A DNA stretch of 63,567 nt from Kiritimatiellia bacterium (GCA_017540905.1 JAFYAC010000094.1:1-63567), one strand, 5' to 3'; positions 4,198-61,022 are shown, numbered from the stretch's first letter. Notes: generated by a model from the letters alone, not told the origin. Program-made: numbers and translations.

Positions 4198-4658
4198 GAA
4201 ACGGCTACAGCATTTCTTAAACCGCTCTAGATTCCCCAATCGACTCTTTCCATGAGTCGGTGCCCCGCCGTCATCCATCGGCTTGGAACCTGCACTGCCC
4301 CTGCACGCAAGCCCCCGGCCCTCCGCGGGAGCATTCGCGATACCAAGGAAAAGATGGCCTTTTCCATCGATTTTCCGTATTTCTGCACGGCCCGCCCGCC
4401 CACCCGGGACATGGCGTTGGGCTTGCCGGGAGAGCGCGGGAACTACCATCGCGCAGCGCCTTGTTCGCCTCGTGGTTCTCTCGCCATTTGCAACACTGTT
4501 CTCCCGTTTGATGTGCGGCATCCTGCCCCTCCACTGGGGGCGCGGGCGTCCCGCCCGCGATGGGGGGGCGACTTTCCAGTCACGCCCCTTTTCTTCTTGG
4601 CGCGGCTGAAAGCCGCACCTCCCCAGCGCCACATCCCCGCCATGTTCTCCCGCATTCG

Positions 4659-4700
4659 CTTGCAATTGTCTGCAATTTGCAATAAATTGGCTGCAATCAG
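4659..4700 (+). promoter_or_regulatory. Candidate operator: four (T/C)TGCAAT repeats directly upstream of the DinJ-like gene
   Basis: The sequence is CTTGCAATTGTCTGCAATTTGCAATAAATTGGCTGCAATCAGCAA. An AAAGGAG ribosome-binding site and the ATG at 4724 follow. Confidence 0.4.
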
Positions 4701-4723
4701 CAACCAAAGGAGCCAACCCCGCC

Positions 4724-4984
4724 ATGTCCGCCGCCACTGCCACCATTTCCTTCCGCGTCAAACCCGAAATCAAGCGCCGGGCCGATGCCCTTTTCGCAAG
4801 TCTGGGCCTGACCACCTCCGCCGCCATGAACGTCCTGCTCATGCAGACCCTCGGACACCGCGGCTTCGCCGCCCCCATCGCCCTCCCCACCGGCGAACCC
4901 CGCACCGACGAAGAAGAAGCCGACGAGACCCCCAACGCCGAGACCGCCGCCCCCGCGACCGTCGCCGACCTCTTCGGCGCATAG
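4724..4984 (+). CDS. RelB/DinJ-family antitoxin-like protein (no cognate toxin ORF adjacent)
   Basis: MSAATATISFRVKPEIKRRADALFASLGLTTSAAMNVLLMQTL matches the DinJ-type RHH N-terminus. The C-terminal tail is acidic. The RBS is AAAGGAG. Confidence 0.8.
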   Translation: MSAATATISFRVKPEIKRRADALFASLGLTTSAAMNVLLMQTLGHRGFAAPIALPTGEPRTDEEEADETPNAETAAPATVADLFGA

Positions 4985-5028
4985 GCGCCCCCTGCCCCAT
5001 CCCGCCCCCCCCGAACCTACCGGTCCAT

Positions 5029-5122
5029 GCCTGCGGCGGCAAACACGGAGGGACTGGCGGAAGGAGGCACGGAGGTCTTTTTGCGGGCAGTTTGTTGGAG
5101 GGGCATCCGCGCCCCGAAAACG
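5029..5122 (+). repeat. Half-copy (single arm) of foldback family FB2
   Basis: CCTGCGGCGGCAAACACGGAGGG...GGAAGGAGGCACGGAG...GTTTGTTGGAGG...CCCCGAAAACGC aligns with the left arm of the element at 41625-41925. Confidence 0.7.
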
Positions 5123-5342
5123 CTCACAAACCATTTTTGGGGATATCCAAGATGGGTCACGTCGGGGCTCCCCCTTCCCCTTGGCGTCCGGGGGGAGCAC
5201 TTGCGATACCAAGGAAAAATCGGTCTTTTCCTGCGGTTTTTCCGTATTCTCACAGGTGGAAGTCGCCGACGTGGGGGAGGGAAAACCGCCGCTCCGAGGC
5301 ATGGCGGCGGGCTTGCCATGAGGGGGCGGCGGGGGTAGGGTC

Positions 5343-6593
5343 GTGGGGATGAGGTTCGTCGATTACATAGCGGCGGGGCAGGACCGCGGAAGCCTGGCGG
5401 TGTTCCTGACGCTGATGGCCACGATGCTGGGGGCATCGGCGACACTGGGCGTGGCGGCGAAGGCGGAGGCCATCGGTTTCCCGGCCATCTGGTGGCTGGC
5501 GTCGGGCTCCATCGGCCTGGCGTTGCAAGGGGTGTTGCTGGCGGGGCGGATACGGGAGACGGGGGCGAGGACCCTTCCGGAGCTGGCGGGCAAGGTGGCG
5601 GGGACGCCCGCGCGCCGCCTGGTGGCGGGCGTGATCGCCGTGGCGTGGCCGGGGGTGGTCGGCGCGCAGTTCGCGGCGGCGGGGAGTCTGGTCGGAGCGC
5701 TGGCCGGCGCGGACGCATCGGCGGCTTGGCCGGTCCCCGCGTGCGCGGCGGCCGTCATCCTCTACACGCTGCTCGGCGGGCAACGGGCGGTCGTCCGGAG
5801 CGACGCCATCCAGATGGCGGTCCTTGCGCTGGGGTTCGGCGGCCTCTTCGCGTGGGTGTTCGGCGGCAAGTGCGGCGGCGCGGGGGTGGCGTGGGGGGAG
5901 GTCCGGTGGGTGTCGGACGCCTTCGGCTGGCGGGAAGCCGCGCTGTCGGTGCTGACGGTGGGGGGGGCGTATTTCCTGGGACCGGACATCGCGTCGCGGT
6001 CGCTGCTGGCGCGGGACGGCCGGGCGGCGCGCCGCGCGGTGCTGTGGGCGTCCCCGGCGTTGCTGGCGTTCGCGGTCGGCGTGGTGCTGGCGGGGATGTG
6101 GGCGGGGGCGAACGCGCCGGGTCCGGGGAATCCGCTCCACCGCCTGGCCGCGCTCCTGCCGTGGGGGTTGCGGTGGTGCCTTTCGGCGGGGCTGGTGGCG
6201 GCGCTGCTGTCGTCGGCGGACACGTGCCTGGTGAACGCGGGGGCCATCGCGGCGAACGACCTGCTGGGCCGCGGGAGCGTGGGGGCGGCCCGCGCGGCGG
6301 TGGCGGCGGTGGGGGCCGCGGCGACGGCGCTGGCCATCGCGGGCGGCGACATCATCGGCATCCTCCTGAAAGCCTATTCGGTGTACACGCCGGGCGTGGT
6401 GTGCCCGCTGGCGGTGGCCATCGTGGCGGGGGGCGTCCGCCGCACGGGCCCGTGGCTGGCGGCGGTGGCGGCCGGCGGCGCCTGCGGTCTGGCGGGGACG
6501 CTCTGGCCGCGGCTGGCGTGGCTGCCGGCCGCGGGCATGGGCCTTTCGCTGCTGCTGGCCCTCGCCGCAACCGGCGGGAAAGGGAAAGAATGA
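5343..6593 (+). CDS. Sodium:solute symporter family (SSF) membrane transporter
   Basis: The 416-aa product is polytopic and hydrophobic, with SSF-like segments (LGASATLGVAAKA..., YTLLGGQRAVVRSDAIQ). The start is GTG at 5343 or ATG at 5349. Confidence 0.8.
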   Translation: MGMRFVDYIAAGQDRGSLAVFLTLMATMLGASATLGVAAKAEAIGFPAIWWLASGSIGLALQGVLLAGRIRETGARTLPELAGKVAGTPARRLVAGVIAVAWPGVVGAQFAAAGSLVGALAGADASAAWPVPACAAAVILYTLLGGQRAVVRSDAIQMAVLALGFGGLFAWVFGGKCGGAGVAWGEVRWVSDAFGWREAALSVLTVGGAYFLGPDIASRSLLARDGRAARRAVLWASPALLAFAVGVVLAGMWAGANAPGPGNPLHRLAALLPWGLRWCLSAGLVAALLSSADTCLVNAGAIAANDLLGRGSVGAARAAVAAVGAAATALAIAGGDIIGILLKAYSVYTPGVVCPLAVAIVAGGVRRTGPWLAAVAAGGACGLAGTLWPRLAWLPAAGMGLSLLLALAATGGKGKE

Positions 6594-7480: not shown

Positions 7481-7520
7481 ACGACCGCAGAATGCCGCCG
7501 ACCTGGCGGTTCACGCACAT

Positions 7521-7875
7521 AGAGCGGTTCAAGAAAAGCGTGACGCAACCCGGGAGGCCGACCTGGGAGGTGCGGCTTTCAGCCGCGCAATGGACTTGGA
7601 CAAGCGGCGCGGCAGGATGCCGCACCCCCGGAAGTGCCGCAAGACCTCCTGAAAAAGCATCGCGCGACTTCCGGAGGTGCGGCTTCCAGCCGCGCCGTTG
7701 GAGGGGAGATTATGGGAAAACACGGGCAATTTCAGCCTGTTTTCCATCTCCATGCGCCCCGCGGGCGGGACGCCCGCGCCCCCAGAAATCACCCGCTTTT
7801 CCATCCGTTTTTCCTCACTGTCCGCATCCGCCAAGGCGCGGCTGAAAGCCGCACCTCCCAGGTCGGTTTCCCAGG
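7521..7875 (+). repeat. Composite interspersed element E, copy 1 (about 355 bp)
   Basis: It is collinear with 25482-25893. Shared blocks are CCTGGGAGGTGCGGCTT(T/C)CAGCCGCGC, GCAGGATGCCGCACCCCCGGAAGTG, GCATCGCGCGACTTCCGGAGGTGCGGCTTCCAGCCGCGCCG.TGGAGGGGAGATTATGG, CGCGGGCGGGACGCCCGCGCCCCCAGA and GGCGCGGCTGAAAGCCGCACCTCCCAGGTCGGTTT. Confidence 0.85.
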
Positions 7876-7925
7876 TTCCGCCACGGTCTTTATTCGGCCG
7901 CGCCCAAAAAGAGCAGCCGCATTCC

Positions 7926-8023
7926 GGGAGGGCCCGGCTTCGTCCGGGCCGCGACCACAGGGCGCTTCAGGGACATGCCTGAAACACCCTGGTCGCGCGG
8001 CCGCGACAAAGCGCGGCCCTCCC
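7926..8023 (+). repeat. Family H1 hairpin repeat, long variant
   Basis: GGGAGGGCCCGGCTTCGTCCGGGCC...CAGGGACATGCCTGAAAC...GGCCGCGACAAAGCGCGGCCCTCCC is close to the reverse complement of 25365-25460. Confidence 0.85.
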
Positions 8024-11291: not shown

Positions 11292-11301
11292 GGTCGGCCC
11301 C

Positions 11302-18432: not shown

Positions 18433-18806
18433 CGGATACCCTTTCTGCAACATGTCTTTCCACTCTACCACACCCCCTGCCCCCCGCGCTCCACAAATTT
18501 GCCTCTTCTGGGTTTTTCCCCGAAGCGCCCCCACACCCCGCCCCCGCCTTCCAAACATCTCCCACCCCCTCCTCCTCCACATCAATGAGATTACAGAAAA
18601 TACAGTAATTGTTTTCTATTTTTCATCCTTCTTCCCACCATGAAAACTATTCCCCCATCCCCTCCCCCTCCCGTTTCCATCATTGCCGACCGCGTTGCCC
18701 GTGGGCACGGCTACTGCCTCTTCACCTTTTTCCCCCGGAAACTGCACGAATCGCCCCCGCTTTCCTTGTTCCCCCTAATCCCCCCTCTAATCAATTTCCC
18801 CCCTGA

Positions 18807-19742
18807 TCAGTGCGCAACCGTGCCGCCGCGCCCGACCGTGGCGAGCCAGTGCCGGATCCTGTTCTGCAAATGCAGCGCCCGCCCCGAAAGATTCCCCGCC
18901 GCCAGCAACCGCCCCATCGCCGCCTTCGTCGCCTCCACCCGCTCCGGCGCCGCATTGACGACCCGGTCTTTTGAGATTACAGAAAAGCTGCGGTTTTTCC
19001 ATTTTTTCTCGCCACCGTTCCGCCGCCGTCCGTGGGCTTTCCGGACCGTGACCAACCGGACAATCCCCAACTTTTTCTCGGCATACAGCGAGAGCGCCTT
19101 GAACGTGCGGTTCTCCCGCAGGATGGCCCCCAACCGCCGGCGCGCACTCTGGAATTCTTCCTGCAATCCACTCTGCAACGATTGCCCTTCGGGAAGGCCG
19201 TCGACGAGCCACTCGAGGGGTAGCCTCTCGTCCAGTTGCAAGACCGAACGCAGGCGCTGGACCAGCTTCTTGTAGCGCATGACCGTGGAATACGGGACGG
19301 CCACGCGGCGGTCTTCGAGCCAGCCTTTCACTCCGCCCTTGCGGGAACGGAACACCGTCTTGCCACTGGGGAGGGTCCTGCGCGAGATGGCATGGTCGAG
19401 CGTGGGGTCGAGGTCGGCCAGGCGCGATCCGATGCACAGCCGGATGCGCAACGTGCGCGGTTCGGCGTCCCAGGGGCCGGCTATGTCCGCGGGTTTCGGC
19501 GTGCCGCGCAGCGACGGCGATGCGGGCCGTTTCTCGCGGATGCGGATTTGCCGGCCGATTTCGTCGATTGCCCAGGCCCCGATTTCGGAGAGGGCGAAAG
19601 CGGCGACGATGGGCGGCGTGAGGGCCGCCAGGAGCATCCAGTCGTTGTTGTGGAAGGCCGGACCGGCCTCGCGGGTTGCGCGGTGGAGGGAATTGAGGAC
19701 CTTGCCGGTGCCGCCGGCGATGCGGGCGATGGATTCTTTCAT
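18807..19742 (-). CDS. Hypothetical protein (311 aa, one N-terminal TM helix), no recognisable family
   Basis: The ORF has strong GC3 bias throughout and an ATG start. A possible HTH is VPYSTVMRYKKLVQRL. The gene is bracketed by inverted GAGATTAC boxes and carries one box pair in-frame at 18973-19010. Confidence 0.7.
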   Translation of the reverse strand: MKESIARIAGGTGKVLNSLHRATREAGPAFHNNDWMLLAALTPPIVAAFALSEIGAWAIDEIGRQIRIREKRPASPSLRGTPKPADIAGPWDAEPRTLRIRLCIGSRLADLDPTLDHAISRRTLPSGKTVFRSRKGGVKGWLEDRRVAVPYSTVMRYKKLVQRLRSVLQLDERLPLEWLVDGLPEGQSLQSGLQEEFQSARRRLGAILRENRTFKALSLYAEKKLGIVRLVTVRKAHGRRRNGGEKKWKNRSFSVISKDRVVNAAPERVEATKAAMGRLLAAGNLSGRALHLQNRIRHWLATVGRGGTVAH

Positions 19743-19831
19743 GGGGGAATGATTTCAGAAATTGCTGGAATGTCAATGATTTTCAGTAATCTCATTTGTG
19801 GTTTCCCGCGGGAACCAAGAGGGGCGGGGAA

Positions 19832-25481: not shown

Positions 25482-25893
25482 GAGCGGCTGAAGAAACACC
25501 AGGGCTGAACCTGGGATACGGTCCTGGGAGGTGCGGCTTCCAGCCGCGCCATCGACTTGGACATGCGGCGCCGCAGGATGCCGCACCCCCGGAAGTGACG
25601 CAAGACCTTTTGAGCAAGCATCGCGCGACTTCCGGAGGTGCGGCTTCCAGCCGCGCCGCTGGAGGGGAGATTATGGAAGACATGGACATTTTCGGCAGGA
25701 TTGCCATCTCCATGCAACCCGCGGGCGGGACGCCCGCGCCCCCAGAATCCACCCGCTTTCCCAGCCGCCGCCCGGCTGGGGCGGGGCGCCTTGAAAGAGT
25801 TGTCCCGAGTTGTCCAGGTTGTTTCTTTTCCTCCCGCGCTCCATCCGTCGGGGCGCGGCTGAAAGCCGCACCTCCCAGGTCGGTTTTCCGGGG
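25482..25893 (+). repeat. Composite interspersed element E, copy 2 (about 412 bp)
   Basis: See 7521-7875: the block order and orientation are the same. Both copies lie between convergent gene 3' ends. Confidence 0.85.
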
Positions 25894-25952
25894 GCAGCCA
25901 TGGTTTTTCTTAAGGCGCCCTATATGGCCTGAGCCCTCGCGCGTGCGCCCCG

Positions 25953-27722: not shown

Positions 27723-27874
27723 GACTGAACTCCTGATGTATACAAAAACGCAGGGACTATATCCCTTTCCGCCCCCCCGCGCAAGCAAAAACCTGCAAAC
27801 CTGCACGCCGCGCGGCCCGCGGGGCGCGTTTCGCGGTTGACAACGCCCGCTCCGCTTCGTAGCGTTGGGGGCGA

Positions 27875-27975
27875 ATCGGTCGCTAGGGGTGTCCTTGAGG
27901 AAAGGGCTGAGAGCTCCCGTGCGGGAGCAACCCTCGGAACCTGTCGGGATCATGCCTGCGTAGGGAAAGCGGACT
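27875..27975 (+). promoter_or_regulatory. TPP (THI-box) riboswitch
   Basis: CTAGGGGTGTCC...GGGCTGAGAG...ACCCTCGGAACCTGTCGGGATCATGCCTGCGTAGGGAAAGCGG matches the conserved THI-element core (CUGAGA, ACCCU..GAACCUG, AUGCC.GCGUAGGGAA). It lies about 65 nt upstream of thiM. Confidence 0.9.
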
Positions 27976-28040
27976 TCGCCTCTCCCCCACCCCGTCTTCC
28001 CGGCCGCTCCCGCCCGCGGCGGCCGCACGGAGAACCGTCC

Positions 28041-30762: not shown

Positions 30763-31204
30763 GGTTCTTCGGGAATTATAGTGGACGGGGCGGATGGCCG
30801 AGAGATCGTGGAGAGATATTTGGAGAATGGAAAGCGCGCCAGCATTCGTCCCCCCCTCCGAGAGGGGGGTGCCGCCCGAAGGAAGATGGCTCATGGATGC
30901 AAGTGCGGAGCGGAAGGAAAGGGCGGCGGGGGGAGTACTGCGGGGAGCCGTCGATGCAGGCTTTCTCATGGTCCATCTGCGGAGGGATTGATTCTTTGGG
31001 TGCGGGATGAAGTCGTGCTTGCCGCGACGGCCGACCGCAGTACTCCCCCCGTCGCGGCCCCTGCCGCTTGTCTTTTGCCATGCATCCGCCTTCCATTCAT
31101 GGCCGCGCCACCCCCCTCTCGGAAGGGGGAGTGTCCTGTCACCCTCCTTGCGCCTTGCATTCGTGGGATTCCGGAGGTGGTTCCACTATAATCCCCGAAG
31201 AACC
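30763..31204. mobile_element. Foldback MITE-like element FB1 copy a (442 bp) with 22/23-nt terminal inverted repeats and an 8-bp target-site duplication
   Basis: The left end is GGTTCTTCGGGAATTATAGTGGA. The reverse complement of the right end is GGTTCTTCGGGGATTATAGTGGA. AAAAGGTG flanks the element at 30755-30762 and 31205-31212. The internal arms each carry CCCCCCTCCGAGAGGGGGGTG and GGGGGGAGTACTGCGG in inverted orientation. Confidence 0.75.
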
Positions 31205-31550
31205 AAAAGGTGGCGACGCCCCCCGCCGTCGTCCGCGAAAGAGAGCCCTCCTCCATGTATATCGTGAGATTAAAGAAAATACACGGAAAACACTCATTTC
31301 TCATGCATCCATCCCTTCTTGAAAACACACACCGCCGGCGCAGAGGCGTCGCCACATTGCTTGGCCCCACCCAAGCCAATATACCGTGCTGGCCATGAAT
31401 CATCGCACGACCAACGCAAAGCCGCGGCGGCCGGGGACGGCCGACCTCCGGGCGGCCCGTCATGGGCAATCCTTTTGCACGGCCCGCCCGGAGGTCGGGC
31501 CCTACCAGAAGAAGCACCCGACAAGAAATCGCAAGGTTTGCAGCAGACAA

Positions 31551-37538: not shown

Positions 37539-37796
37539 GCCTGACCTCTTCCTTTTCCGTCGGCCCGCACCGCGCGGACCCTTCAAATCTCGTTTGTTGA
37601 CGGTTCGACTCTACCCCATCCCCCCCCCCAATGCAACGCCCCACCCCCGCCCCCCGGTAAACCGTTTTCCCTCCCCTCCCGCCATGCCGTGAGATTACAG
37701 AAAATGCGAGCATTTCCCTCCCATCGCGCCAACGTTGTCCGCCTGAACATTTTGCGGGCCGCCCAAGGCAAAGCGTCATGCCGTCCGGGGGGAATG

Positions 37797-37894
37797 GAGG
37801 GCCCGGCTTCGTCCGGGCCGTGCCCATTGGGCGCCACGGGAACACGGCAGAGACGGGCTTCCCCGCACGGCCGCGACAAAGCGCGCCCCTCCCC
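37797..37894 (+). repeat. Family H1 hairpin repeat
   Basis: GGAGGGCCCGGCTTCGTCCGGGCC...GGCCGCGACAAAGCGCGCCCCTCCCC. Confidence 0.8.
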
Positions 37895-38013
37895 ATGGAG
37901 ATTCCACAGGGAGGGGCGCGCTTCCGGGCGACCTTGCGGCGGGGAGTCGGGCCGGAACGGCAACGAACCGGCATTCAGCCCCGTTTTTCCCCCGTTGCCG
38001 TCCCCCCTCTTTG

Positions 38014-38799
38014 TCAGTCCAGCAACCCCGGGAACGCCTTGCGGACGCGGTCCGCGAGATCCTTGGCGTCGCCCTTGCCGCTGACGGCTTCCAGCAGGGC
38101 CAGGACGTCCGCGCCCGAGACGTTGTACATCGTGGTGCTGCTCTTCTTGAGCTTCGCGCTCGCGCTGCGGTACGTCAGCACCTTGCCGGCCCGCTTGCTG
38201 CCGTTGCGGATGCCGTCCAGCTCCGCTTCCAGGACCTCGCGCTCCTTGCCAGGCTCCGCGGCCATGACCGCCTTGCAGACGGACTTCGCCTTCGCCCAGC
38301 TGATGTCCCCGCGTTCCAGCATCGACCGGATCCGCGAGTCCATGCCGGGCGCGTACTTGAGGATGTCCTCGATCCACGCCTCGCTCTTGTCGAGGAACCG
38401 CGCGATCCGCGCCGTGTCCCAGTTGGCGTTCGCCATGAAGATCACCGCGTCGAAGTAGTCCGTGATCCGCGCGTCGAGCCGGTCGGCGTTGAGCTTGAGG
38501 TTGAGCGCCTGGATTTCGTCGAGGTCGCCGTGCACCACGCGCACGTCGATGCGGTCGAAGAAGCCCGGACGCGTCTCGCGGATGCGCCGGATGGCGTTGT
38601 AGCGGTGGAACCCGCCCACCAGGTAGAACTCGCCCGGATTGCGTTCCCAGACCACGAGCGGCTCCAGCAGCCCGTTGCGCGCGATGTCTTCCGCGTAGTG
38701 CGCCACCTTCGTCTCGTTGAGCGGACGGTGGTTCGCCACCGAGGGATGCAGGTGGATCTGGTCGATTCCCACGTAGTCGAAGCGTTTGGTTGTCAACAT
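38014..38799 (-). CDS. ParB/Srx N-terminal-domain (ParB-like nuclease/partition fold) protein with central HTH; stand-alone
   Basis: LEPLVVWERNPGEFYLVGGFHRYNAIRRI is the ParB-N GxxHR-type motif. TARIARFLDKSEAWIEDILKY is HTH-like. I recognise no ParA/Soj-like gene in the window. Confidence 0.8.
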   Translation of the reverse strand: MLTTKRFDYVGIDQIHLHPSVANHRPLNETKVAHYAEDIARNGLLEPLVVWERNPGEFYLVGGFHRYNAIRRIRETRPGFFDRIDVRVVHGDLDEIQALNLKLNADRLDARITDYFDAVIFMANANWDTARIARFLDKSEAWIEDILKYAPGMDSRIRSMLERGDISWAKAKSVCKAVMAAEPGKEREVLEAELDGIRNGSKRAGKVLTYRSASAKLKKSSTTMYNVSGADVLALLEAVSGKGDAKDLADRVRKAFPGLLD

Positions 38800-38832
38800 G
38801 GCCGATTCCTTTCGTTGTCAAAATTCGCGCCC

Positions 38833-38861
38833 ACCCTACCACACCCCCGCCAAAAAGTAAA
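38833..38861 (-). promoter_or_regulatory. Candidate promoter TTTACT-17-TAGGGT with TGTGG extended -10, upstream of the ParB-like gene
   Basis: The minus strand reads TTTACT TTTTGGCGGGGGTGTGG TAGGGT. The -10 element lies about 34 nt before the ATG at 38799. Confidence 0.4.
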
Positions 38862-39058
38862 ACGTTTTAGCACGGACGGCGCCACGGACCGGCAATCCGC
38901 CCGGAATCGCGCAAAACGCCTTGTTTTTCCGTAATCTCATCGCTCCGTCCCCGGCCAGCCCTCCGTTCACTTCACCCAATTTCCACCCCCGTGCCCCCGG
39001 CCATCCCCTCCCCATCATCCCATCCCCTGTACGCCCGCGCAGCGGGCGCACCGCCCTC

Positions 39059-39093
39059 TCGTCACTCGTCTCTCGTCACTCGTCACTCGTCAC
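39059..39093. repeat. Heptanucleotide microsatellite (TCGTCAC)x5, one variant unit
   Basis: TCGTCAC TCGTCTC TCGTCAC TCGTCAC TCGTCAC abuts the stop codon (39094-39096) of the GH172 gene. Confidence 0.9.
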
Positions 39094-41337
39094 TCAGGGG
39101 AACACGACCCTGGCCCGGTACACGGCCGTCCCTTCCGCCGGCTTGTCGCCGGTCGGCCGCACCCCCACCGCGCGCGACTGCATCCCGATCCACGGGTCCA
39201 CCGCCACCTGCACGTACGGCTCCTCCGGCGGCCCCTTCACCCCGGTTCCCTGCATCGCCGCCCAGCCCGAGTCGTCGAAGTCCGCCTCCACGGCCTCCCC
39301 GGGCGGATCGATGGCGAACTTCCAGTCCGCCTCCGTCCCGGCGAACCAGTCCCCCTTGCGCATCGCGAGGAGCACCCAGTCCGGATACGCCTGCAGCGCC
39401 GTGCGGATGGCCACCAAATGCTCCCCCGCCGGCGGCTTGACCGCCGCGACCGCCGCCTCCGCAGGATCCCCGGCCCGCAGCACGCACTCCCCGTCGATGA
39501 AGAGCTCCGCCGGCATGTTCGCCCAGAGCAGCGCCGTGACGCTCTCCCCGGCCCGTTCCGACCGCAGCACCTCCGCCGCCTCCCGCACCTTCGGGTCGGC
39601 GTCCTCCAGGAACGGCGCCAGCGTCCCGGCCTCCCGCGACCCGGCGATTGCCTCGCCGTAGAGCGCCAGCCGCAGCTCCGCCATCCGCCGCGCGCCGGGC
39701 GTCCAGCCCGGGCCCTCGGTGGCGAGCCGCCGCGCGAACTCGTCGCGCGCCCCCGTCCAGTCGCCGAAGCGCTCCGCGTTCCAGGCGGCGGCCATGGCGT
39801 TGAAGGGATCCAGGCGCGGGTCGGTCGGCGTCTTCCGGTATCCCGGCGCGAGCCGGGCCGAGTCCGCCCGCGCCGGCTCCTTCAGGTAGTACCACGCCGT
39901 GCTCTCGAAATACGCGTGCGAAACATTGTCCGGCCCCCGCTCGAACTCCATGTCCAGCGACTGCGCGAACACCGACGGGTCGGCCGCGTGCACCCGGTAC
40001 TGCACCGTGCGGAACGGCTCCTTGGCGAGCAGCCCGTGCGTCGGCGCGGCCATCACGTTCTGGTAGTACCAGCCGCCGTTGAAGTAATCCTCCAGCCCCG
40101 TCCCCCGCCAGCCCGGCGCCGTTTCCGCGTCCTTGCGGATCGTCTCGTCGCCCTCCAGCGCCCAGTACGACCCGTCGAGCGTGCACACCGCGAGCAGGCA
40201 CCCCACGTACTTCCCTTCCCCCCGCGCGTGCAGGACCGGGTGCGGCGACCCGACCTCCTTGAGCCCGCTCCGCTTCCAGGCCGCGTGGAAGCGGCCCAGC
40301 CCCTTGAGCTCGCGCCGCCCGACCGCCTCCCGCACCGCGCGCACGCGCACCGGGACCTTCCCGTACTTCCCGGAATCCAGCCGCACCTCCATCCCGTCCG
40401 CGAACGGCATCGGGAACGCGCAGAACAGCTCCTCCCCCTCCATCCCGAAGTACAGCGACTTCGCCCGCACCCTCCGCCACGGCATCCCGCACAAATCCCC
40501 GAGCGGCGCCCACACGCTCTCCTCCTGCGCGCCGCCGTACCGGACGCCCACCCGCATCTCGCGGAGCAGCGCATCCCGTTCCCCTTCCGGCACCAACCCC
40601 CACTCCGGCTCGAACCCCAGCCGCCGCACCACCCCGCGCCCCTCCAACTCCATCACCGGCGATTCCGCCGACAGCACCGCCTCCACCGTCTCCGTCCCCG
40701 CGCCCGCGGGAAAACCCTCCGACCAGACCTCCCGCAGCCGTGCGAGCGCCGCCCGGTCCCGGTCCGGCAACGGCCACGCGAAGGATTCCACCTCCGTCCC
40801 CGGCGGCAGCTTCGTTTCCGAGAGCTGGAAATACGGCTTGGCGCCCTCGGGCCCGGCCTCGCATTCCACGCGCAGGCTCTTCGCGTAGGGCATCGGCACG
40901 AACGAATGCCAGCAGTAGTTCGCGTACTCCGCCAGCGGCGCCGCGAACGGCTCCATCCCGCCCCCGCACCACTCCTTCACATCGCCCCCGAACCTCGCCT
41001 CCGCCTCCCCGTCGAAGAAGAACCGGAACCGGAACGGCAACCCGTCCTTCGCGCCCGTGAACCAGAACCGCGTCAGGACCCCGGGCCCCTGGAGGTCGGC
41101 GACGACCTTCCACCCCGGCTCCGCCGAATCCCGGAGGAACGTCCCCCAGTCGTCGTTCCCGCCCGTGCGGTCCCAAGACGAATGCATCACCGTGTCCCGC
41201 CCGTCCATGCGCGCGATGGACAGCGGATCCGCCAACCGTTCCGCCTCCGTCGCCACCGACACCGGCGCCCGGCCGCACCCCGCCGCGAACGCCATCCCCC
41301 CGGCCACCACCAACAACTCGAACAACAACTTCTTCAT
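39094..41337 (-). CDS. DUF2961 / glycoside hydrolase family 172-like lipoprotein with extra C-terminal domains
   Basis: The lipobox is MAFAAGC. HSSWDRTGGNDDWGTF, GPGVLTRFWFTG, YWALEGDE and FNGGWYYQ are DUF2961 hallmarks. Confidence 0.8.
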   Translation of the reverse strand: MKKLLFELLVVAGGMAFAAGCGRAPVSVATEAERLADPLSIARMDGRDTVMHSSWDRTGGNDDWGTFLRDSAEPGWKVVADLQGPGVLTRFWFTGAKDGLPFRFRFFFDGEAEARFGGDVKEWCGGGMEPFAAPLAEYANYCWHSFVPMPYAKSLRVECEAGPEGAKPYFQLSETKLPPGTEVESFAWPLPDRDRAALARLREVWSEGFPAGAGTETVEAVLSAESPVMELEGRGVVRRLGFEPEWGLVPEGERDALLREMRVGVRYGGAQEESVWAPLGDLCGMPWRRVRAKSLYFGMEGEELFCAFPMPFADGMEVRLDSGKYGKVPVRVRAVREAVGRRELKGLGRFHAAWKRSGLKEVGSPHPVLHARGEGKYVGCLLAVCTLDGSYWALEGDETIRKDAETAPGWRGTGLEDYFNGGWYYQNVMAAPTHGLLAKEPFRTVQYRVHAADPSVFAQSLDMEFERGPDNVSHAYFESTAWYYLKEPARADSARLAPGYRKTPTDPRLDPFNAMAAAWNAERFGDWTGARDEFARRLATEGPGWTPGARRMAELRLALYGEAIAGSREAGTLAPFLEDADPKVREAAEVLRSERAGESVTALLWANMPAELFIDGECVLRAGDPAEAAVAAVKPPAGEHLVAIRTALQAYPDWVLLAMRKGDWFAGTEADWKFAIDPPGEAVEADFDDSGWAAMQGTGVKGPPEEPYVQVAVDPWIGMQSRAVGVRPTGDKPAEGTAVYRARVVFP

Positions 41338-41412
41338 GCCCCCCTTCTATCCCCCCACCCCCTCCCCGCGCAACCCAATTCGCCCGGACCGCCCCCGATC
41401 CGCCGCCCCCGG

Positions 41413-41506
41413 TTTTTCCAACCATTGGAAAAAAGTTTTCCAACCATTGGAAAAATCCCCGCAGTTTTTCCAACCATTGGAAACTTTTTTTCCAATCATT
41501 GGAAAA
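41413..41506. promoter_or_regulatory. Array of four 19-bp palindromes TTTTCCAA-CCA-TTGGAAAA (candidate operator array) upstream of the GH172 gene
   Basis: The copies are at 41413-41434, 41436-41455, 41465-41483 and 41485-41506; the fourth reads CCAATCATTGG. Core-to-core spacing is 22, 30 and 22 bp. The array lies 76-169 nt upstream of the ATG at 41337. Confidence 0.6.
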
Positions 41507-41590
41507 CCTCTTCCGCCCCCCATCAATCCATGCCATGAGATTACAGAAAAATCAATATTTTCCAACGGCATTCCAACACGTTCACCACCA

Positions 41591-41618
41591 TGAAAAAAGC
41601 CGCGCGAACCGCGCGGCC
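41591..41618 (-). terminator. Rho-independent terminator (minus strand)
   Basis: The minus strand reads GCCGCGCGGTTCGCGCGGC followed by TTTTTT. It abuts the left target-site duplication of the FB2 element. Confidence 0.55.
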
Positions 41619-41624
41619 CATCCC

Positions 41625-41925
41625 GAATGCTGATCAGATAAGGTTTTTCCCTTGAGGGAGGGGCCTGCGGTGCCAAACACGGAGGGGAAGGAGGCACGGA
41701 GACACGGAGAGTTTTTGGATGGAGCGTTTGTTGGAGGAGACTTCGCTCCCGGAAAACGCCGGCCAAACGCGTGGGAGGGACGTTTTTGGAAGTGCGAAGC
41801 TCCTCCCTGGAAAATCTCCGTGTCTCCTTCCTCCGCGCGCTCCGTGTTTTGCGCCGCAGGCAGAGGAAAAAGGAGAGCGGGCGGGGTTGTTCCATGGGTG
41901 GGCGGAGCTTGTCTGATCAGCATTC
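41625..41925. mobile_element. Foldback MITE-like element FB2 (301 bp) with perfect 14-nt termini and an 11-bp target-site duplication
   Basis: It starts GAATGCTGATCAGA and ends TCTGATCAGCATTC. CGGCCCATCCC flanks it at 41614-41624 and 41926-41936. The internal arms are homologous in inverted orientation (CAAACACGGAGG / GGAAGGAGGCACGGAG). Confidence 0.8.
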
Positions 41926-42177
41926 CGGCCCATCCCCCCCCGCCCCCCTTTGGCCCGTCAGGTTTCCAGCCGCCGATGCCGAAGGCGCGGCAGACCTCGC
42001 CGATCGCCGTGCGAAAGGGGACGCACCACGATGCCAAGACGGAAACTGGGCGCGGCTGAAAGCCGCACCTCCCAAAAAGCGGATACGCCATTTCTTGAAC
42101 CGCTGGAAATCGCCGGAAAACCCCGTTTTTTCCATAATCTCACGCGGCCCTGGGACGTGGGTTCCTGACGCGCCGGA

Positions 42178-42495
42178 TCAGCGGGAGGGGGTGTCGAAGA
42201 AGGCTTCTCCGGCGTCCAGAAGGGCGTGGCCGGCGAGCGTGGTGAAGTACCAGAGGCGGGGGATGGCGTCCGCGGCGACGGCGGAAGGGGGGAGCGGGAC
42301 GAAGGTGCCGCCGCGGAATTCGTGGGCGGCCAGGTGGCCGGCGCGGACGAGGCGCAGGAGGGCGGCTCCGAGGTCGGCGGGGGCGACGGGGGCGCCTTGC
42401 GGGGCGGATTGGACGTCGTCGCGGATGGAGGCGGCGTTCTCCCAGTCGTCGCAGGCGGCATTCAGCACCAGCAGGTCCAGGTTGTGCGGGTCCAT
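42178..42495 (-). CDS. Hypothetical protein (105 aa)
   Basis: The product begins [28 protein letters not shown] and ends [28 protein letters not shown]3 bias is good and I recognise no family. It is the C-terminal end of shadow track ORF 42178..43302. Confidence 0.55.
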
Positions 42496-45167: not shown

Positions 45168-45219
45168 AATGTCTTTCTACTGTATCGACTTGCTTGCTGT
45201 TTTGATTGATTGGGGCAAC

Positions 45220-45248
45220 ACTTTACGCTTCCGCCGCCCCCGTTGCAA
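45220..45248 (-). promoter_or_regulatory. Sigma70-like promoter TTGCAA-17-TAAAGT for rpsO-pnp
   Basis: The minus strand reads TTGCAA CGGGGGCGGCGGAAGCG TAAAGT. The leader to the rpsO ATG is about 45 nt. Confidence 0.55.
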
Positions 45249-47375: not shown

Positions 47376-47381
47376 AACGCC

Positions 47382-47668
47382 ACGAATGCAAAGCGCATGG
47401 AAAGTACCAGTATTCTCCCCCCTCCGAGAGGGGGGTGGCGCGGCCATGACCGGGATGCCCATGCATCGCGAAAGACAAGTGACAGAGGCCGCGACGGGGG
47501 GAGTACTGCGGTCGGCCGTTGCGGCAAGCGAGCCTTTGCAGCAGCAACAAGCAAAACAAACCTTTTTCGGTTGGAGCGTGCGGAAGATTGCGTCAACGGC
47601 ATCCCGCAATACTCCCCCCGCCGCTGAAGCGGCACCCCCCTCTCGGAGGGGGGGAGTGCTGGCGCACG
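47382..47668. mobile_element. Foldback element FB1 copy b (about 287 bp; ends not precisely defined)
   Basis: The left arm is CACGAATGCAAAGCGC...CCCCCCTCCGAGAGGGGGGTGGCGCGGCCATG...GACGGGGGGAGTACTGCGGTCGGCCGT. The right arm carries CCGCAATACTCCCCCC...CACCCCCCTCTCGGAGGGGGGG in inverted orientation. Confidence 0.65.
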
Positions 47669-52665: not shown

Positions 52666-53631
<966 letters not shown>

Positions 53632-56634: not shown

Positions 56635-57180
56635 GCGCTCTCCACGGGGAGGGACGCGCTTCTGCGCGTCCGCGAAAGAAAAGGTGGCAACACAATGGAT
56701 GGCGGCCACACTATTTCTGAAAACGCTCTAGTGGAACCGTCTCCCGAATTCAGCAAATTCATGGACCAAGGAAGGCGCCAGGACCCGCCCCCCTCCGAGA
56801 GGGGGGTGGCGCGGCCATGGATGGAAGGCGGATGCATGGCAAAAGACAAGCGGCAAGGGCCGCGACGGGGGGAGTACTGCGGTCGGCCGTAGCGGCAAGC
56901 GCGACTCCGCACCGGCAACGAACGAATCAAGACTTTTGCGGATGGAGCAAGTGGACGCCTGCATCGACGGCCTCCCGCAGTACTCCCCCCGCCGCCCTTT
57001 CCTTCCGCTCCGCATTTGCAAGCCATAAGCCATCTTCCTCCGGGCGGCACCCCCCTCTCGGAGGGGGGCGAATGCTCGCGCACACCCCATTCCCTGAATA
57101 CGGCCCCCATCGTCCCAACCCCATCGTCGCAATCCACTATGGCGGGTTCAGAAATAGTGTTGCCTCAACCTTTTGTCCCG
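56635..57180. repeat. Composite palindrome: family C (-), FB1 copy c, family C-like (+)
   Basis: GCGCTCTCCACGGGGAGGGACGCGCTTCTGCGCGTCCGCGAAAGAAAAGGTGGCAACACAATGG...CTATTTCTGAAAACGCTCTAGTGGAACC is followed by the FB1 arms in the opposite order to copy a. The region ends in ...TCCACTATGGCGGGTTCAGAAATAGTGTTGCC. Confidence 0.75.
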
Positions 57181-57184
57181 TCCA

Positions 57185-57288: not shown

Positions 57289-57370
57289 GGGCCCGTTTCC
57301 CTGCGGCAACGCCTTGTCTGGTCGGCATTCCGGCGAGTCCCCCCGCCGCTGGGCGGATGGCGGGTTCCCC

Positions 57371-58216
57371 CTACTCGGCGGAGGGGGTGAGGCAGACGCG
57401 GAAGCCGACGTTGTTGTAGCGGCTGGCGGGGGGGAGGGAGAGGCGGTCGTTCTGGCGGCGGATGTCGAACCAGTCGTCGCCGCACCAGCATCCGCCGCAC
57501 ACCACGCGCTCGGTGCCGGTGGCGGGACCCGCGTAGTTCGTCGCCGAGGCTTCGGGCCAGGCGCCGGACCAGTCCGAACACCATTCGCAGACGTTGCCTG
57601 CCATGTCGTACAGCCCGGTGGTGCCCGCGGCCGACCGCCCGACGGGGTGGGTCCGGTTTTCGCTGTTCCGGGCCGTCCAGCTCCACGGGGTGCCGGCGTA
57701 TTCCCGGACGACGGCGCGGGCCACGAGCCACTCCATTTCCGTCGGGAGGCGCAATCCCGTCCGGCGGCAGAACTCCATGCAGTCTTCCCAGGATACGCTT
57801 TCCACCGGCAGCTCCGCCCGCTTCGAGGCCACCGGGAACTCCTCGCCGCGGAAATACGACGGGTTGGTCCCCATCACGCTTTCCCACTGCTTCTGTGTCA
57901 CCTCGCAGACGCCGATCCAGAAGCCGTCCACCGTCATCCAGACGGGTTCCTTCGGCGGAGCACCGGATTTTTCGAACAATTTCGGGACCATCGCCCGCAG
58001 GGCCGCCTCCTTGGCCGCCTCCCCGATGCCCATCTTGCAGTCTTCGATCCACGCCAGGGTCAACTCCGCGCCGCCGGGCAGGGTGACGGTCCGTTTTTCG
58101 AAATTCTCCTCTCCCGGCGGAAGGATGCACCGTCCGTCCGGCGGGGCGGCGGGGGCCGCCGCCGCCGCGGAGAGCAGCGCCAGCGCCGCGACGATCCGTT
58201 TCCAGGCGTGTTTCAT
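57371..58216 (-). CDS. Secreted FGE-sulfatase fold protein
   Basis: MKHAWKRIVAALALLSAAAAAPA is the signal peptide. FWIGVCEVTQKQW, LRLPTEMEW, YDMAGNVCEWC and NNVGFRV are fold hallmarks. Its ATG overlaps the kinase stop as ATGA. Confidence 0.85.
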   Translation of the reverse strand: MKHAWKRIVAALALLSAAAAAPAAPPDGRCILPPGEENFEKRTVTLPGGAELTLAWIEDCKMGIGEAAKEAALRAMVPKLFEKSGAPPKEPVWMTVDGFWIGVCEVTQKQWESVMGTNPSYFRGEEFPVASKRAELPVESVSWEDCMEFCRRTGLRLPTEMEWLVARAVVREYAGTPWSWTARNSENRTHPVGRSAAGTTGLYDMAGNVCEWCSDWSGAWPEASATNYAGPATGTERVVCGGCWCGDDWFDIRRQNDRLSLPPASRYNNVGFRVCLTPSAE

Positions 58217-60099
58217 CGGATTTCGAACCCCCAGTCATCTTGCCCGTCCTCTTCATCCTCTTCTTCCGAATCGGACTCGAAGGGGGCGCGCCGTTCCGCC
58301 CACAGGCGGAATCCGATTTCACCGGGCGCGGGACAGCGGGCGAAGGGGTAGTCGCTGGGGACGGTGTCCGCGCTCTTCAGGAGGTCCCAGTAGCGCATGA
58401 AGCGCGGTTGCTCCAGCAACGCCTCCGGAAGGGTTTCCCCCGCGGCCCGGTCCGCCCAGCTTCCGCCCATGCAGCGGAAACCGGCCTTGCCGTCCGCTTC
58501 GCCCCAAGATCTCGTCAGTTCCCGGACGTTCCCGTACAGGTCGGAGCAAGAGGCGCCATCCGCCTTTTCGCCGATGGGATGCGTCCGTCCCCCGGCGTTC
58601 TCCGCGAACCATCCGGCCTCCAGGCGGGCCTCCGGGGTGTCGGCCGGATGGAGAGAAGCCAGTTGCCGCCACTCCGGCGCATCCGGCAGACGGAAAGTCC
58701 AGTCTTCCTCCCTGGCGATGGAAGTCGAATTGAGGCGTTGGAGAAACTCCAGGCAGGCGCCCAGGGTCAGGGAATCCACGGGCCTGTCGTCGCCCTGGAA
58801 GCGGGAAGGGTTGTCGTCCATCAGGGCCATCCATTCCTTTTGGGTGACCTCGTGGAGGCCGCCCCAGGTGGAAACCCAAGCGTTTCTCTCCAACCTGGTG
58901 CCGAATGGCTTCATGTCATCCACCAGCGCGAGGATGGTTTCCTTTTTTTCTTCGTCCGCCTCGAAACGGGCCAGCGCCGCGGCGCGCACGGCACGGACGC
59001 CCGGCGCTGCCGGCACCTCCGGCGCGGCCACCGGTTCGGGGGAGGGCGGCGCTGCCGGACTCGCTGGGACCTCCGTAACGGCAGGGGAGGGAGTGGCTGG
59101 GGTGTCGGCGGGTGCCGGGGAAGCGGGAGGCGCGGGGGACAGCGCGGGAGCGGGGGCAGGAACAGGGGGCTGCACGGGAGCGGGGGGCGGACCTTCTGGC
59201 GACGGTTCCAGACGTCGCGCAAGCGGCACCGCAATGGGCACCGCCACCAGCAGACCCAGCACCGCCGCGGCCGCGGCGGTGCGCCGCCAGTGGCGGCGGC
59301 GGATGGCGCGCGAGAAGGCCGCGGCGTCCGGGTAGCGCTGGCGGGGGAGGCTGGCGGTGGCCTTGCGGATGATCCGTTCCCAGGCGCGGGGCGGGTTGCC
59401 TCCGAAGCATTCGTCGGCGAGGATGCCCAGCGCGTGGACGTCGGTCGCCGGGGTCGGCGCGCCGCCCGCGAACTGCTCCGGGGCCGCGTAGCCGGGCGTG
59501 CCCACCCCCACCTCGGCGCCGTCCACCACCGACGGCGAGACGCGCCCCGCCGCCGTCTCGCCCGCGACCGTCTCGCCCGCCCGCTTGAGCAGGCCGAAAT
59601 CGACCAGCACCGCATGGCCGTCCGCGCGGCGGAGGATGTTGCGGGGCTTGAGGTCGCGGTGGACCCAGCCGCGCCGGTGCAGTTCCGCGACGCCGCGCGC
59701 GACGTCGAGGAGGTAGGCCGCCACGGCCGCGTCCCTGTGCGGCAGCGGGTACTCCTCCAGCAGCTCCATCGCAATCCACGGGCGCCCCTCCTCCACCCCC
59801 GCGCCGAAGAAGGCCGGGAACGCAGGTCCCGGCGCCTCCATCAAAAAGCGCGTCTCCCGGTCGAAGCGCTCGCGCGGCCCGTCGCCGTCGCGCCAGAGGA
59901 CCTTCAGGACCGCCGGCGTCCCCAACCGCCGGTGGCGCGCGCAATAGACTTCCGCGCTGCCGCCGCGCCCGACGTAGCCCGCCACCATCCACTCGCCGAT
60001 CTCCCGCCCCTCGCGCCAGAGGTGGGTCGCCCCCTCGGCCACCGACGCGCCCGCTTGGGCCAGCCAGTTCTCCAGCCTGTCGCCGCCATCAGGGCCCAT
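58213..60099 (-). CDS. Hanks-type Ser/Thr protein kinase with one TM helix, a Pro-rich linker and an extracytoplasmic FGE-sulfatase-fold domain
   Basis: GRGGSAEVY..AVLKV is the G-loop with the VAIK-like Lys. HRDLKPRNIL, DFGL and GTPGYAAPE are kinase motifs. The transmembrane helix is AAAAAVLGLLVAVPIAVPL. The C-terminal part carries HEVTQKEWMALM...FRLPDAPEW...DLYGNVRE. Confidence 0.9.
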   Translation of the reverse strand: MGPDGGDRLENWLAQAGASVAEGATHLWREGREIGEWMVAGYVGRGGSAEVYCARHRRLGTPAVLKVLWRDGDGPRERFDRETRFLMEAPGPAFPAFFGAGVEEGRPWIAMELLEEYPLPHRDAAVAAYLLDVARGVAELHRRGWVHRDLKPRNILRRADGHAVLVDFGLLKRAGETVAGETAAGRVSPSVVDGAEVGVGTPGYAAPEQFAGGAPTPATDVHALGILADECFGGNPPRAWERIIRKATASLPRQRYPDAAAFSRAIRRRHWRRTAAAAAVLGLLVAVPIAVPLARRLEPSPEGPPPAPVQPPVPAPAPALSPAPPASPAPADTPATPSPAVTEVPASPAAPPSPEPVAAPEVPAAPGVRAVRAAALARFEADEEKKETILALVDDMKPFGTRLERNAWVSTWGGLHEVTQKEWMALMDDNPSRFQGDDRPVDSLTLGACLEFLQRLNSTSIAREEDWTFRLPDAPEWRQLASLHPADTPEARLEAGWFAENAGGRTHPIGEKADGASCSDLYGNVRELTRSWGEADGKAGFRCMGGSWADRAAGETLPEALLEQPRFMRYWDLLKSADTVPSDYPFARCPAPGEIGFRLWAERRAPFESDSEEEDEEDGQDDWGFEIR

Positions 60100-60649
60100 C
60101 GACGCGCTCCATCCGTTCCACCAGTTCGCGGAGGCGCGCCGTCATGCGCTTCTTCGCCTGGTCCACCACGTCGCGCGTCGCCAGCAGCGAGGCCGCCACG
60201 TCCGCGGGCTTCTCCCCGCGCAACGCCGTGCGCACGAACATCTGCTTGTGGCGGGCGTTGACCGACGGGTCGGCCAGCAGCTGCTCCAGCGCCGCCGCGT
60301 AGACCGCCTCCCGCCATGACGCCTCCTCAGCGTCCGCCGCGGCACCGTCCGCCGCGTCGGCGGCCAGGCGGTTCTCCATGCGCTTGCGGCGGCCTTCGGA
60401 GCGGAGGGCGTTGAGCGCCTTGTGGCGGAGCACGCCGGTGAGGTAGTTGTGGAAGGCCCCCTGCCCGGACGGCACCGCCACGTAGCCCGGCAGGGCGTCC
60501 ATCAGGGCCAGCAGCGTCTCCTGGATCAGGTCGTCCGCCTCCAGCCCCGGGAAGCGCTCCTGCATGTACGCCTCCATCATCGGCCGGTACGCCGCGACGA
60601 ACTCCGTCCAGCGCGGATGCTCCGCCGCCCCGGCGATCTGCTTGAGCAT
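60089..60649 (-). CDS. ECF-type RNA polymerase sigma factor
   Basis: Region 2 is DDLIQETLLALMDAL...FHNYLTGVLRHKALNALR. Region 4 is RHKQMFVRTALRGEKPADVAASLLATRDVVDQAKKRMTARLRELV. The 3' end overlaps the kinase start by 11 nt. I use the ATG at 60649, although the true start could be further upstream. Confidence 0.8.
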   Translation of the reverse strand: MLKQIAGAAEHPRWTEFVAAYRPMMEAYMQERFPGLEADDLIQETLLALMDALPGYVAVPSGQGAFHNYLTGVLRHKALNALRSEGRRKRMENRLAADAADGAAADAEEASWREAVYAAALEQLLADPSVNARHKQMFVRTALRGEKPADVAASLLATRDVVDQAKKRMTARLRELVERMERVDGP

Positions 60650-61022
60650 CGTCGTGGAGGTGGTCGGCACCAGCGACCCCGCCGCGCCCTTCGGCGCGGG
60701 GGGCGGGATGGATGGCGGATGGGGTTTCACGTCGGGGTTCCCGCGGTCTCCCGCGAGTAAACCACACCCCGCACCGGGCCGCAATGCAAACTCCGGGAGG
60801 CGGACGGGGGCGGGTGTGGGACGAAATAGGGAATAGAAACTGCACCCAAGGCATTTTTGCAATTACGGGAAACCATTGACATTCCGGCGGTTTTTCACCA
60901 TCCTCCACCCCATGGACACCATCCGGAAATGCCACGGAGCAACCGCCTCCGTCCCCCGCCCCGCCGCCGCGGATTCCACCCGCGGCACGGCCTTGCGCCA
61001 CGGGGGGCGGCCGTGAAACTGA

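Follow-up and report, generated by a model that had tools for sequence, protein, structure and literature searches.

The Kiritimatiellae window and its dispersed 14-nt box

The stretch of DNA analysed here, called the window throughout, is 63.6 kb of chromosomal DNA from an uncultured rumen Kiritimatiellae bacterium known as a metagenome-assembled genome (MAG); its G+C content is about 69%, and about 82% of it is coding and 17.7% non-coding. The PNPase gene of the window is identical to the PNPase gene of MAG RGIG6649 from sheep rumen, and window DNA recurs across many ruminant gut metagenomes. We describe an AT-rich 14-nt box that is dispersed through this DNA in both orientations, and its association with the gene for a 311-aa protein (18807-19742, minus strand), whose family is named h311 here. 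The window was compared with related loci, contigs and strains, which carry L-numbers (L213, L219, etc.), so that the box census covers about 300 kb of DNA in total. Gene calls are automatic and were taken from metagenome contigs encoding the same proteins.

Exact matches to GAGATTACRGAAAA occur five times in the window (18587, 18973, 37691 and 41537 on the plus strand and 38925 on the minus strand) and not once in 100 shuffles. With up to two mismatches allowed there are 11 matches against 0.14 expected from shuffles, the additional ones being 7706, 25667 and 31266 on the plus strand and 5238, 19780 and 42128 on the minus strand. The preliminary description of this DNA had listed 13 copies and had taken them to be far above chance and almost always non-coding; all 13 coordinates are confirmed, the excess over shuffles bears out the first statement, and 12 of the 13 lie outside called genes (binomial P of about 1e-8 for intergenic enrichment within the window), the only coding copy being 18973, within the 311-aa open reading frame (ORF). 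Two copies that had been regarded as degenerate are indeed weaker than the rest. That at 60859-60872 has three mismatches, yet we count it as a true member because its downstream module is complete (TTGACA, CATCCT and ATG at +39), whereas that at 4371-4387 carries an indel in the box and is recognisable only as the sibling of the 5238 copy, with which it has about 60 nt of downstream sequence in common. The copies in the window, together with the 311-aa gene, are as follows.

4371-4387, minus strand: degenerate sibling of the 5238 copy by sequence comparison, with the indel in the box
5238-5251, minus strand: box with one mismatch, followed by GGAAAA/TTTTCC repeats and then the sigma54-like TGGTATCGCAAGTGCT; the other side is 97 nt from an SSF symporter gene
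7706-7719, plus strand: degenerate box in the middle of a 357-nt element whose inverted arms are 60 nt long (7534-7593 and 7831-7890); the flanking genes converge
18587-18642, plus strand: solo full module (box, T-tracts, CATCCT, ATG at +39) pointing into the 3' end of the 311-aa gene; the other side is 28 nt from the ATG of an S41 peptidase gene
18807-19742, minus strand: 311-aa gene h311, of a multi-copy, uncharacterised, very basic, Kiritimatiellae-specific family
18973-18986, plus strand: inverted box inside the 311-aa ORF at codons 253-257 (F-S-V-I-S), preceded on the sense strand by two phased A-tracts of AAA lysine codons
19740-19793, minus strand: box (19780-19793) and promoter-like module before the 311-aa gene, in the order box, 3 nt, TTGACA, 16 nt, AATCAT, 6 nt and the ATG at 19742
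25667-25680, plus strand: counterpart of the 7706 copy, within the repeat 25484-25918 and likewise flanked by convergent genes
31266-31279, plus strand: box with one mismatch (GAGATTAAAGAAAA), non-coding, adjoining a 178-nt repeat family
37691-37704, plus strand: box that separates the ParB-like gene (3' end) from the 79-aa/ComEC operon; the sister genome L219 has it too, in the same orientation
38925-38938, minus strand: box 125 nt upstream of the ParB-like gene and pointing at it; forms a facing pair with 37691, 1.25 kb apart
41537-41592, plus strand: solo full module with ATG at +39, followed by a 21-codon ORF only; forms a facing pair with 42128, with four TTTTCCAAnnnTTGGAAAA palindromes just upstream
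42128-42141, minus strand: box 37 nt past the stop codon of a 105-aa ORF, which together with about 58 nt before it corresponds to one unit of a roughly 208-nt tandem repeat in other strains
60859-60914, plus strand: degenerate box (GCAATTACGGGAAA) with a full module (TTGACA, CATCCT, ATG at +39), in the divergent region between an extracytoplasmic function (ECF) sigma gene and sbcD

An element of about 40 bp, reading T-GAGATTAC-R-GAAAA, 8 nt, TTTCC, about 5 nt, ATTTTC, has the box as its core; two thirds of copies continue with a C-rich stretch and then ATGAA, exactly 39 nt past the box. A position profile anchored on the box, built from 25 non-internal copies in the window and related contigs, shows a favoured T before the box, the 14-nt core, two T-tracts, a C-rich stretch and finally ATG(A/G)A at +53 from the box start. 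The T-tracts stand one helical turn apart, at +22 to +26 (WTTCC, the complement of GGAAA) and +31 to +36 (ATTTTC) from the box start, and their presence in the profile indicates that the small inverted repeat GGAAAA-N-TTTTCC proposed earlier is real. Beyond this GGAAA/TTTCC dyad of 5 to 6 bp, the palindrome content of the element consists of a weak outer complement only. About half of the copies have CATG some 5 nt before the box, and an ATG follows 37 to 41 nt past the box in 20 of about 30 non-internal copies, compared with about 4 to 6% by chance.

Paired boxes at the h311 genes

All nine readable h311 genes (one each in the window, L213, L217, L219, L221, L222 and L231 and two in L215, from at least five genome backgrounds) carry a box upstream and a second, inverted box inside the gene. 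In all nine the upstream box lies 37 to 41 nt before an ATG without a Shine-Dalgarno sequence, in the layout box, 3 nt, TTGACA or TTGCAT, 16 to 18 nt, a weak -10 (AATCAT, CATCCT), 6 to 8 nt, ATG. This layout probably represents sigma70-type geometry, in which case the transcript would begin at the start codon and the box would occupy approximately -53 to -40. Across the eight upstream h311 copies that were scored (L231 was read later), the best mean -10 is found at +40, with TTGACA/TTGCAT at +17 and ATG at +53 from the box start, and among 23 other copies the -10 at +40 does not stand out. The sequence CATTGACATTCC, described previously as following both the 19780 and the 60859 copies, is confirmed, and the TTGACA module contained in it is present at both; of the two genes into which the TTGACA was thought to point, sbcD starts at 61013 (MKLIHTADWHLG), 100 nt past the module ATG.

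The internal box is inverted and lies near codon 250, about 0.8 kb from the upstream box, where it reads TTT TCn GTA ATC TC on the sense strand (F-S-V-I-S), with the two preceding AAA lysine codons recreating the phased A-tracts. The codons that it uses make up small shares of their codon families in the window genes (TTT 6%, TCT plus TCA 2%, GTA 1% and AAA 13%), and by codon usage the combination has a likelihood of about 1e-5 per gene, and yet paralogues that have diverged at most other silent sites retain it. Furthermore, L221 has its own local variant of the box, GAGATTTCAGAAAA (GATTTC), which is found in the upstream copy, in the internal copy and in two dispersed copies, and which turns the internal protein sequence into FSEIS, a change from valine to glutamate. 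Judged from these sequences, the internal box is kept by selection on the DNA sequence and not on the protein, since rare codons are retained and the internal copy of L221 tracks the local box variant at the cost of an amino-acid change. In internal copies the box and the T-tracts are conserved and the -35, the -10 and the ATG are not, and the similarity between upstream and internal arms extends to about 37 nt. Inverted pairs had been proposed to bracket 18587-19793, 37691-38938 and 41537-42141; these coordinates hold, and since the internal copy in the window is 18973-18986, the pair that is conserved family-wide is 18973/19780 and not 18587/19780.

The closest paralogue pair, the second gene of L215 (L215b) and that of L217 (85% nucleotide identity), is homologous from the first base of the box to about 20 nt before the stop codon, with unrelated flanks on both sides, and no box follows the stop codon in the eight h311 genes read outside the window. 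Box density differs strongly between related genomes: 21 kb of L222 contain no boxes apart from the pair at its h311 gene, compared with about one per 5 kb in the window lineage. The box was not found in 79 pnp loci of other Kiritimatiellae, Verrucomicrobia and Lentisphaerae, indicating that it is lineage-specific, like h311; the 80 pnp loci taken from GTDB species show no synteny past rpsO-pnp. A metagenome-wide 15-mer scan yielded L134, L209 and L210 as the useful loci among the matches listed, the others being chance matches in unrelated AT-rich DNA.

With respect to the protein, the view of the 311-aa gene as an orphan does not stand, as we find more than 220 close homologues of 300 to 330 aa, with several paralogues within one MAG; the named sources are all Kiritimatiellae MAGs and the rest are metagenome assemblies. 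In metagenomes the conserved core of h311 is covered at about 13 times single-copy depth, and numerous homologues are found on contigs that hardly extend past the gene. A profile search adds 351 remote relatives that have a core of about 120 residues in common, many of them (P0166, P0175 and others, about 450 aa) again on contigs barely exceeding the gene, as is usual when a multi-copy gene breaks assemblies. Ten of 10 remote relatives tested have no Pfam domain, and no h311 relative was found on viral contigs. The h311 protein has no match in Pfam, NCBIfam, PHROGs, PADLOC or PDB sequences, its mostly helical AlphaFold (AF2) model (predicted local distance difference test score of 75) has no fold match in PDB or BFVD, and neither a transposase domain nor the HUH Y1 (IS200/IS605-like) signature was detected in Pfam, NCBIfam and fold searches. 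A literature search returned nothing relevant on the box motif or on Kiritimatiellota promoters.

Dispersed copies, larger repeats and breakpoints

The orientation of the 24 boxes outside h311 loci does not follow the flanking genes: relative to neighbouring gene starts, six have one in the forward direction only, seven in the reverse direction only, six in both and five in neither, the last lying between convergent gene ends. This split of about 1:2:1 corresponds to random intergenic placement and is unlike that of promoters or operators of neighbouring genes, in agreement with the earlier remark that the box is not simply a promoter. Equally, the copies at 7706 and 25667 do lie between convergent genes, as had been stated, and both are contained in a longer repeat of 260 to 357 nt. 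The repeats in question, 7534-7890 and 25484-25918, resemble a miniature inverted-repeat transposable element (MITE), with 60-nt inverted arms and the degenerate box at the centre.

Other copies are likewise built into larger units. The 4371 and 5238 boxes lie in a unit that runs on into the sigma54-like TGGTATCGCnAnTGCT; the -24/-12 motif itself, TGGTATCGC(G/A)A(A/G)TGCT (GG-N10-GC), is found at 4330-4345 and 5196-5211 on the minus strand, 25 nt past both boxes and with no obvious downstream target gene. Box 42128, the 37 nt that separate it from the 105-aa ORF and the final 25 nt of that ORF together make up one unit of a roughly 208-nt tandem repeat, which is present two or three times in other strains (L223 13130-13480 and L224 12700-13330, compared with 42128-42200 in the window); one strain type is without the 105-aa ORF altogether. 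The 600 bp between the facing boxes 41537 and 42128 consist of repeats at 15 to 100 times single-copy depth. More broadly, 41408-42075 is made up of multi-copy repeats (depth 500 to 3800) and includes a hairpin, GGCGCGGCTGAAAGCCGCACCTCCC, that resembles repetitive extragenic palindromic (REP) sequences and recurs at 4596, 7832, 25849 and 50304. The four tandem TTTTCCAAnnnTTGGAAAA palindromes at 41414-41507, between box 41537 and a GH172 gene, belong to a very high-copy family (depth of about 3500 compared with about 35 for single-copy DNA), arrays of which are also seen after the h311 paralogues of L213 and L215 and ahead of a box in L219. A further repeat family of 160 to 180 nt (84 to 88% identity) occurs in both orientations at 31011-31188, 47380-47536 and 56729-56906, and also in L134 and L229.

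Two boxes lie at or close to the limits of synteny between related strains. Window and L219 are 94% identical over 3.8 kb (PilD-ComEC-79aa), and their homology ends with the final base of box 37691-37704; from there on, the window continues with the ParB-like gene and L219 with xdhC. Strains L223 and L226 are 98% identical to the window through rpsO-pnp-105aa, with homology fading 7 to 13 nt past box 42128. As these breakpoints fall in repeat-rich DNA, ordinary repeat-mediated recombination could also explain them.

The ParB-like gene has a perfect 12-nt palindrome, TAAAACGTTTTA, about 60 nt upstream (38858-38869), which is conserved before the orthologue in L231 and is a better candidate than the box for the site of the ParB-like protein itself. 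The boxes upstream of the L231 orthologue are oppositely oriented and on one side only. We rejected a parS-type site in view of this orientation, of the separate palindrome and of the box not being palindromic. As a candidate binder of the box, the ParB-like protein is weaker than the 311-aa protein, which is the best lead.

Local housekeeping genes have canonical sigma70 promoters of their own: TTGCAA-17-TAAAGT for rpsO (45217-45245), TTGCGC-17-TATAGT for rpmB (27760-27790) and TTGCAT-17-TAGAGT (37605-37638, minus strand) for the 79-aa/ComEC operon, the last lying between box 37691 and the 79-aa gene and being present in L219 as well. The box was rejected as a housekeeping promoter on these grounds, and the module -10 (cATcCT) is far from the local canonical TAnAGT. 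A -10 on the reverse strand of the box (TAATCT), which could serve the S41 peptidase gene and def (ATG 28 to 29 nt away), was rejected as a general reading because there is no -35, because gene distances range from 18 to about 700 nt and because the 79-aa/ComEC operon has its own promoter between box and gene. An ECF-sigma reading (GGAAAA-N14-CGnTTT) differs in spacing and motifs from the usual AAC/CGT pattern, and the consensus for integration host factor, compared by eye, does not fit the box. Rumen metatranscriptome contigs cover only pnp and rpsO in the window; apparent expression peaks at 39056-39095 and 41409-41508 are low-complexity or multi-copy sequence and not transcripts. The former is a CTCGTCA repeat in the 3' end of the GH172 gene, which draws unrelated metagenome and metatranscriptome contigs and so mimics a peak. 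Beside the degenerate box 60859 lies an operon (57371-60730, minus strand) of an ECF sigma factor, a Ser/Thr kinase and a protein with a formylglycine-generating enzyme (FGE)-sulfatase domain; should the module be an alternative-sigma promoter, this factor would be a candidate for the sigma in question.

A candidate DNA recognition site for h311

Our tentatively preferred interpretation is that the box and its two phased T-tracts form the site of a sequence-specific, lineage-specific DNA-binding protein, most probably h311 itself, in a system resembling REP sequences and their associated tyrosine transposases (RAYTs). The preliminary description had left the choice between a protein-binding site, a transposon end and an RNA motif. 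A recognition site at the DNA level is favoured because the element occurs in both orientations relative to transcription, retains rare codons within an ORF and gives no signal of RNA structure. The end of a mobile unit is partly supported, in that the homology between paralogues begins precisely at the box, although a matching right end and a target-site duplication are lacking. The evidence speaks against an RNA motif. We propose that the element, a rough dyad with A/T tracts one helical turn apart, would be read by a sequence-specific protein, for which the very basic h311 protein is the most likely reader. One box abuts the -35 of the h311 gene's own, probably leaderless promoter and the second lies inverted in the ORF about 0.8 kb away, so that h311 might bridge the two, leading to autoregulation and perhaps to copying of its own unit. 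The remaining boxes would then be solo or paired derivatives scattered in intergenic DNA, alone or built into larger repeats, and a few dispersed modules may donate a promoter and start codon to other genes, acting as portable leaderless promoters.

Several observations weigh against this interpretation. The census rests on about 300 kb of DNA. The unit that runs from box to stop codon lacks both a matching right end and a target-site duplication, and a hidden Markov model search, including the region downstream of 18587, found no h311 remnants next to solo modules. No DNA-binding or recombinase fold is recognisable in h311 by Pfam and fold searches. No inversion, deletion or strand-switch junction was seen at any box in contigs of five DNA metagenomes (X1, X2, X3, X6 and X11; 20-50x), although contigs can miss rare variants. 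In addition, the ATG stands at a fixed +39 in 12 of 22 non-h311 copies (P < 1e-9), which promoter function explains more directly, the geometry is sigma70-like, and the module ATG is the called start of three genes outside the h311 family (an L219 histidine kinase, an L209 840-aa ORF and an L226 190-aa ORF).

These last points lead to the main rival, a promoter element, as a possible, somewhat less probable reading. The box would then act as a site for an activator, as a UP-like element or as a component of an alternative-sigma promoter, within a cassette for leaderless transcripts, and h311 genes would merely be the largest set of targets. The transcripts would be those of h311 genes, a conserved antisense RNA inside each of them, a few other genes and many small unannotated RNAs. 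From the box start, TTGACA at +17 to +22, a 17-nt spacer, cATcCT at +40 to +45 and ATG at +53, where a start site is expected, all fit such a cassette, as do the frequent ATG 37 to 41 nt past non-internal boxes, the lack of a Shine-Dalgarno sequence at h311 genes and the three called starts just mentioned. However, housekeeping promoters nearby are canonical whereas the module -10 is poor and the -35 is conserved only at h311 genes, orientation is random with five of 24 dispersed copies between convergent gene ends, and the internal copies retain only the box and T-tracts. The shift of the box variant between species would also be unusual for a contact with sigma or the alpha subunit. A promoter role and an h311 site are not mutually exclusive.

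The remaining explanations account for less. A classical transposon or MITE, with 18587-19793, 37691-38938 and 41537-42141 as elements with or without cargo and the box as terminal inverted repeat, appears improbable. Its facing pairs are 0.6 to 1.25 kb apart compared with 2.6 to 18.7 kb for divergent neighbours, synteny with the 94%-identical genome ends at 37704 and h311 is multi-copy; nevertheless, no target-site duplication flanks any of the three pairs, the conserved partner in the h311 family is internal with no box past the stop codon in the other eight genes, the ParB-like gene of L231 has its boxes in the other orientation and on one side, no empty or excised forms occur in the contigs, and no transposase domain was detected. 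That the box is a DNA uptake signal, by which competence machinery would prefer box-bearing DNA, is similarly doubtful, even though a core followed by two helically phased AT tracts resembles the Haemophilus uptake signal sequence, both orientations occur without relation to genes, variants are species-specific, drive could produce rare codons inside an ORF and the window holds competence genes (ComEC, prepilin peptidase, pseudopilins). Uptake leaves unexplained the obligate h311 pair, even in the L222 stretch that has no other boxes, as well as the fixed ATG at +39 and the start of paralogue homology at the box; the density of about one per 5 kb is below that of known uptake sequences, and no copy lies in coding regions other than h311. 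We consider an invertible switch very unlikely. The inverted boxes at h311 genes and around the ParB-like gene, 0.6 to 1.25 kb apart and with arm similarity of about 37 nt, do enclose a promoter and most of a gene, as inversion sites for phase variation might, but the contigs of the five metagenomes run straight through every box (with the proviso that rare variants could be missed), no recombinase was recognised, and inversion would cut the gene's conserved C-terminal 56 codons off from its remainder. Least credible of all is a structured or protein-bound RNA or a terminator: the short GGAAAA/TTTTCC complement could form a small hairpin, yet fold energies on both strands do not differ from shuffles (z from -1.6 to +1.1), Rfam has no match at any box, and the element is found on both strands with respect to transcription, before the likely start as well as antisense in an ORF.

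Comparison with known systems places the h311 site closest to REP/REPIN-RAYT systems in its behaviour. Both have a short, lineage-specific, intergenic repeat in either orientation, a chromosomal gene family that is always accompanied by inverted copies, repeat variants that differ between related genomes, and repeats that join other motifs into larger mosaics. Unlike REP sequences, the box has no clear hairpin palindrome and one of its gene-associated copies is inside the ORF instead of flanking it; h311 has no HUH/Y1 transposase signature or known fold and has many diverged paralogues compared with one to three copies. Since neither a hairpin repeat nor an HUH transposase is found, h311 and the box would work like REP/RAYT without being a member. 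Correia elements of Neisseria and mobile promoters are similar in being small dispersed intergenic repeats with promoter elements and a protein-binding site, which affect neighbouring genes and mark rearrangement sites. Correia elements have 26-bp terminal inverted repeats and TA duplications, whereas a single box module is bounded by neither terminal repeats nor duplications, and its distance to the start codon that it provides is constant. Like the box, UP elements and class I activator sites are AT-rich and lie directly upstream of the -35 at about -40 to -55, with an A-tract beside the -35. The box, however, is far richer in information, having invariant G and C positions; it is also found away from any expected promoter, stays conserved within a reading frame and varies from one sister species to another. 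The uptake sequences of Pasteurellaceae and Neisseriaceae have in common with it a conserved core, phased AT-rich flanks, many copies in both orientations and lineage dialects; they differ in that the box is tied to one gene family, has a fixed distance to ATG, is absent from other coding DNA and is less dense.

Kiritimatiellae are abundant in gut and rumen and their genetics are almost unstudied. A dispersed DNA word of high information content, linked to a specific uncharacterised protein family, offers a candidate protein-site pair. Its signature is unusually clean, with a promoter copy and an in-frame copy retained despite the rare codons, and even an altered amino acid, that this entails. 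The module is also a candidate portable promoter for an uncultured phylum and a potential marker of rearrangement-prone sites. If h311 moves or copies DNA, it would represent a new family of mobile-element enzymes, and if it is a regulator, a new DNA-binding family with a defined operator. As a more speculative extension, to which we give rather little credence, the superfamily of 351 relatives could constitute a novel class of sequence-specific DNA-acting proteins, able to recognise the box, to copy the unit from box to stop codon into further intergenic sites and to seed solo boxes. This would amount to a new selfish or domesticated mobile system, whose ends would double as portable leaderless promoters and as points at which Kiritimatiellae genomes are rearranged.

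Away from the boxes, the Rfam matches over threshold in the window are two tRNAs and a thiamine pyrophosphate (TPP) riboswitch only, the latter at 27875-27984 (67.8 bits), before thiM-thiE.

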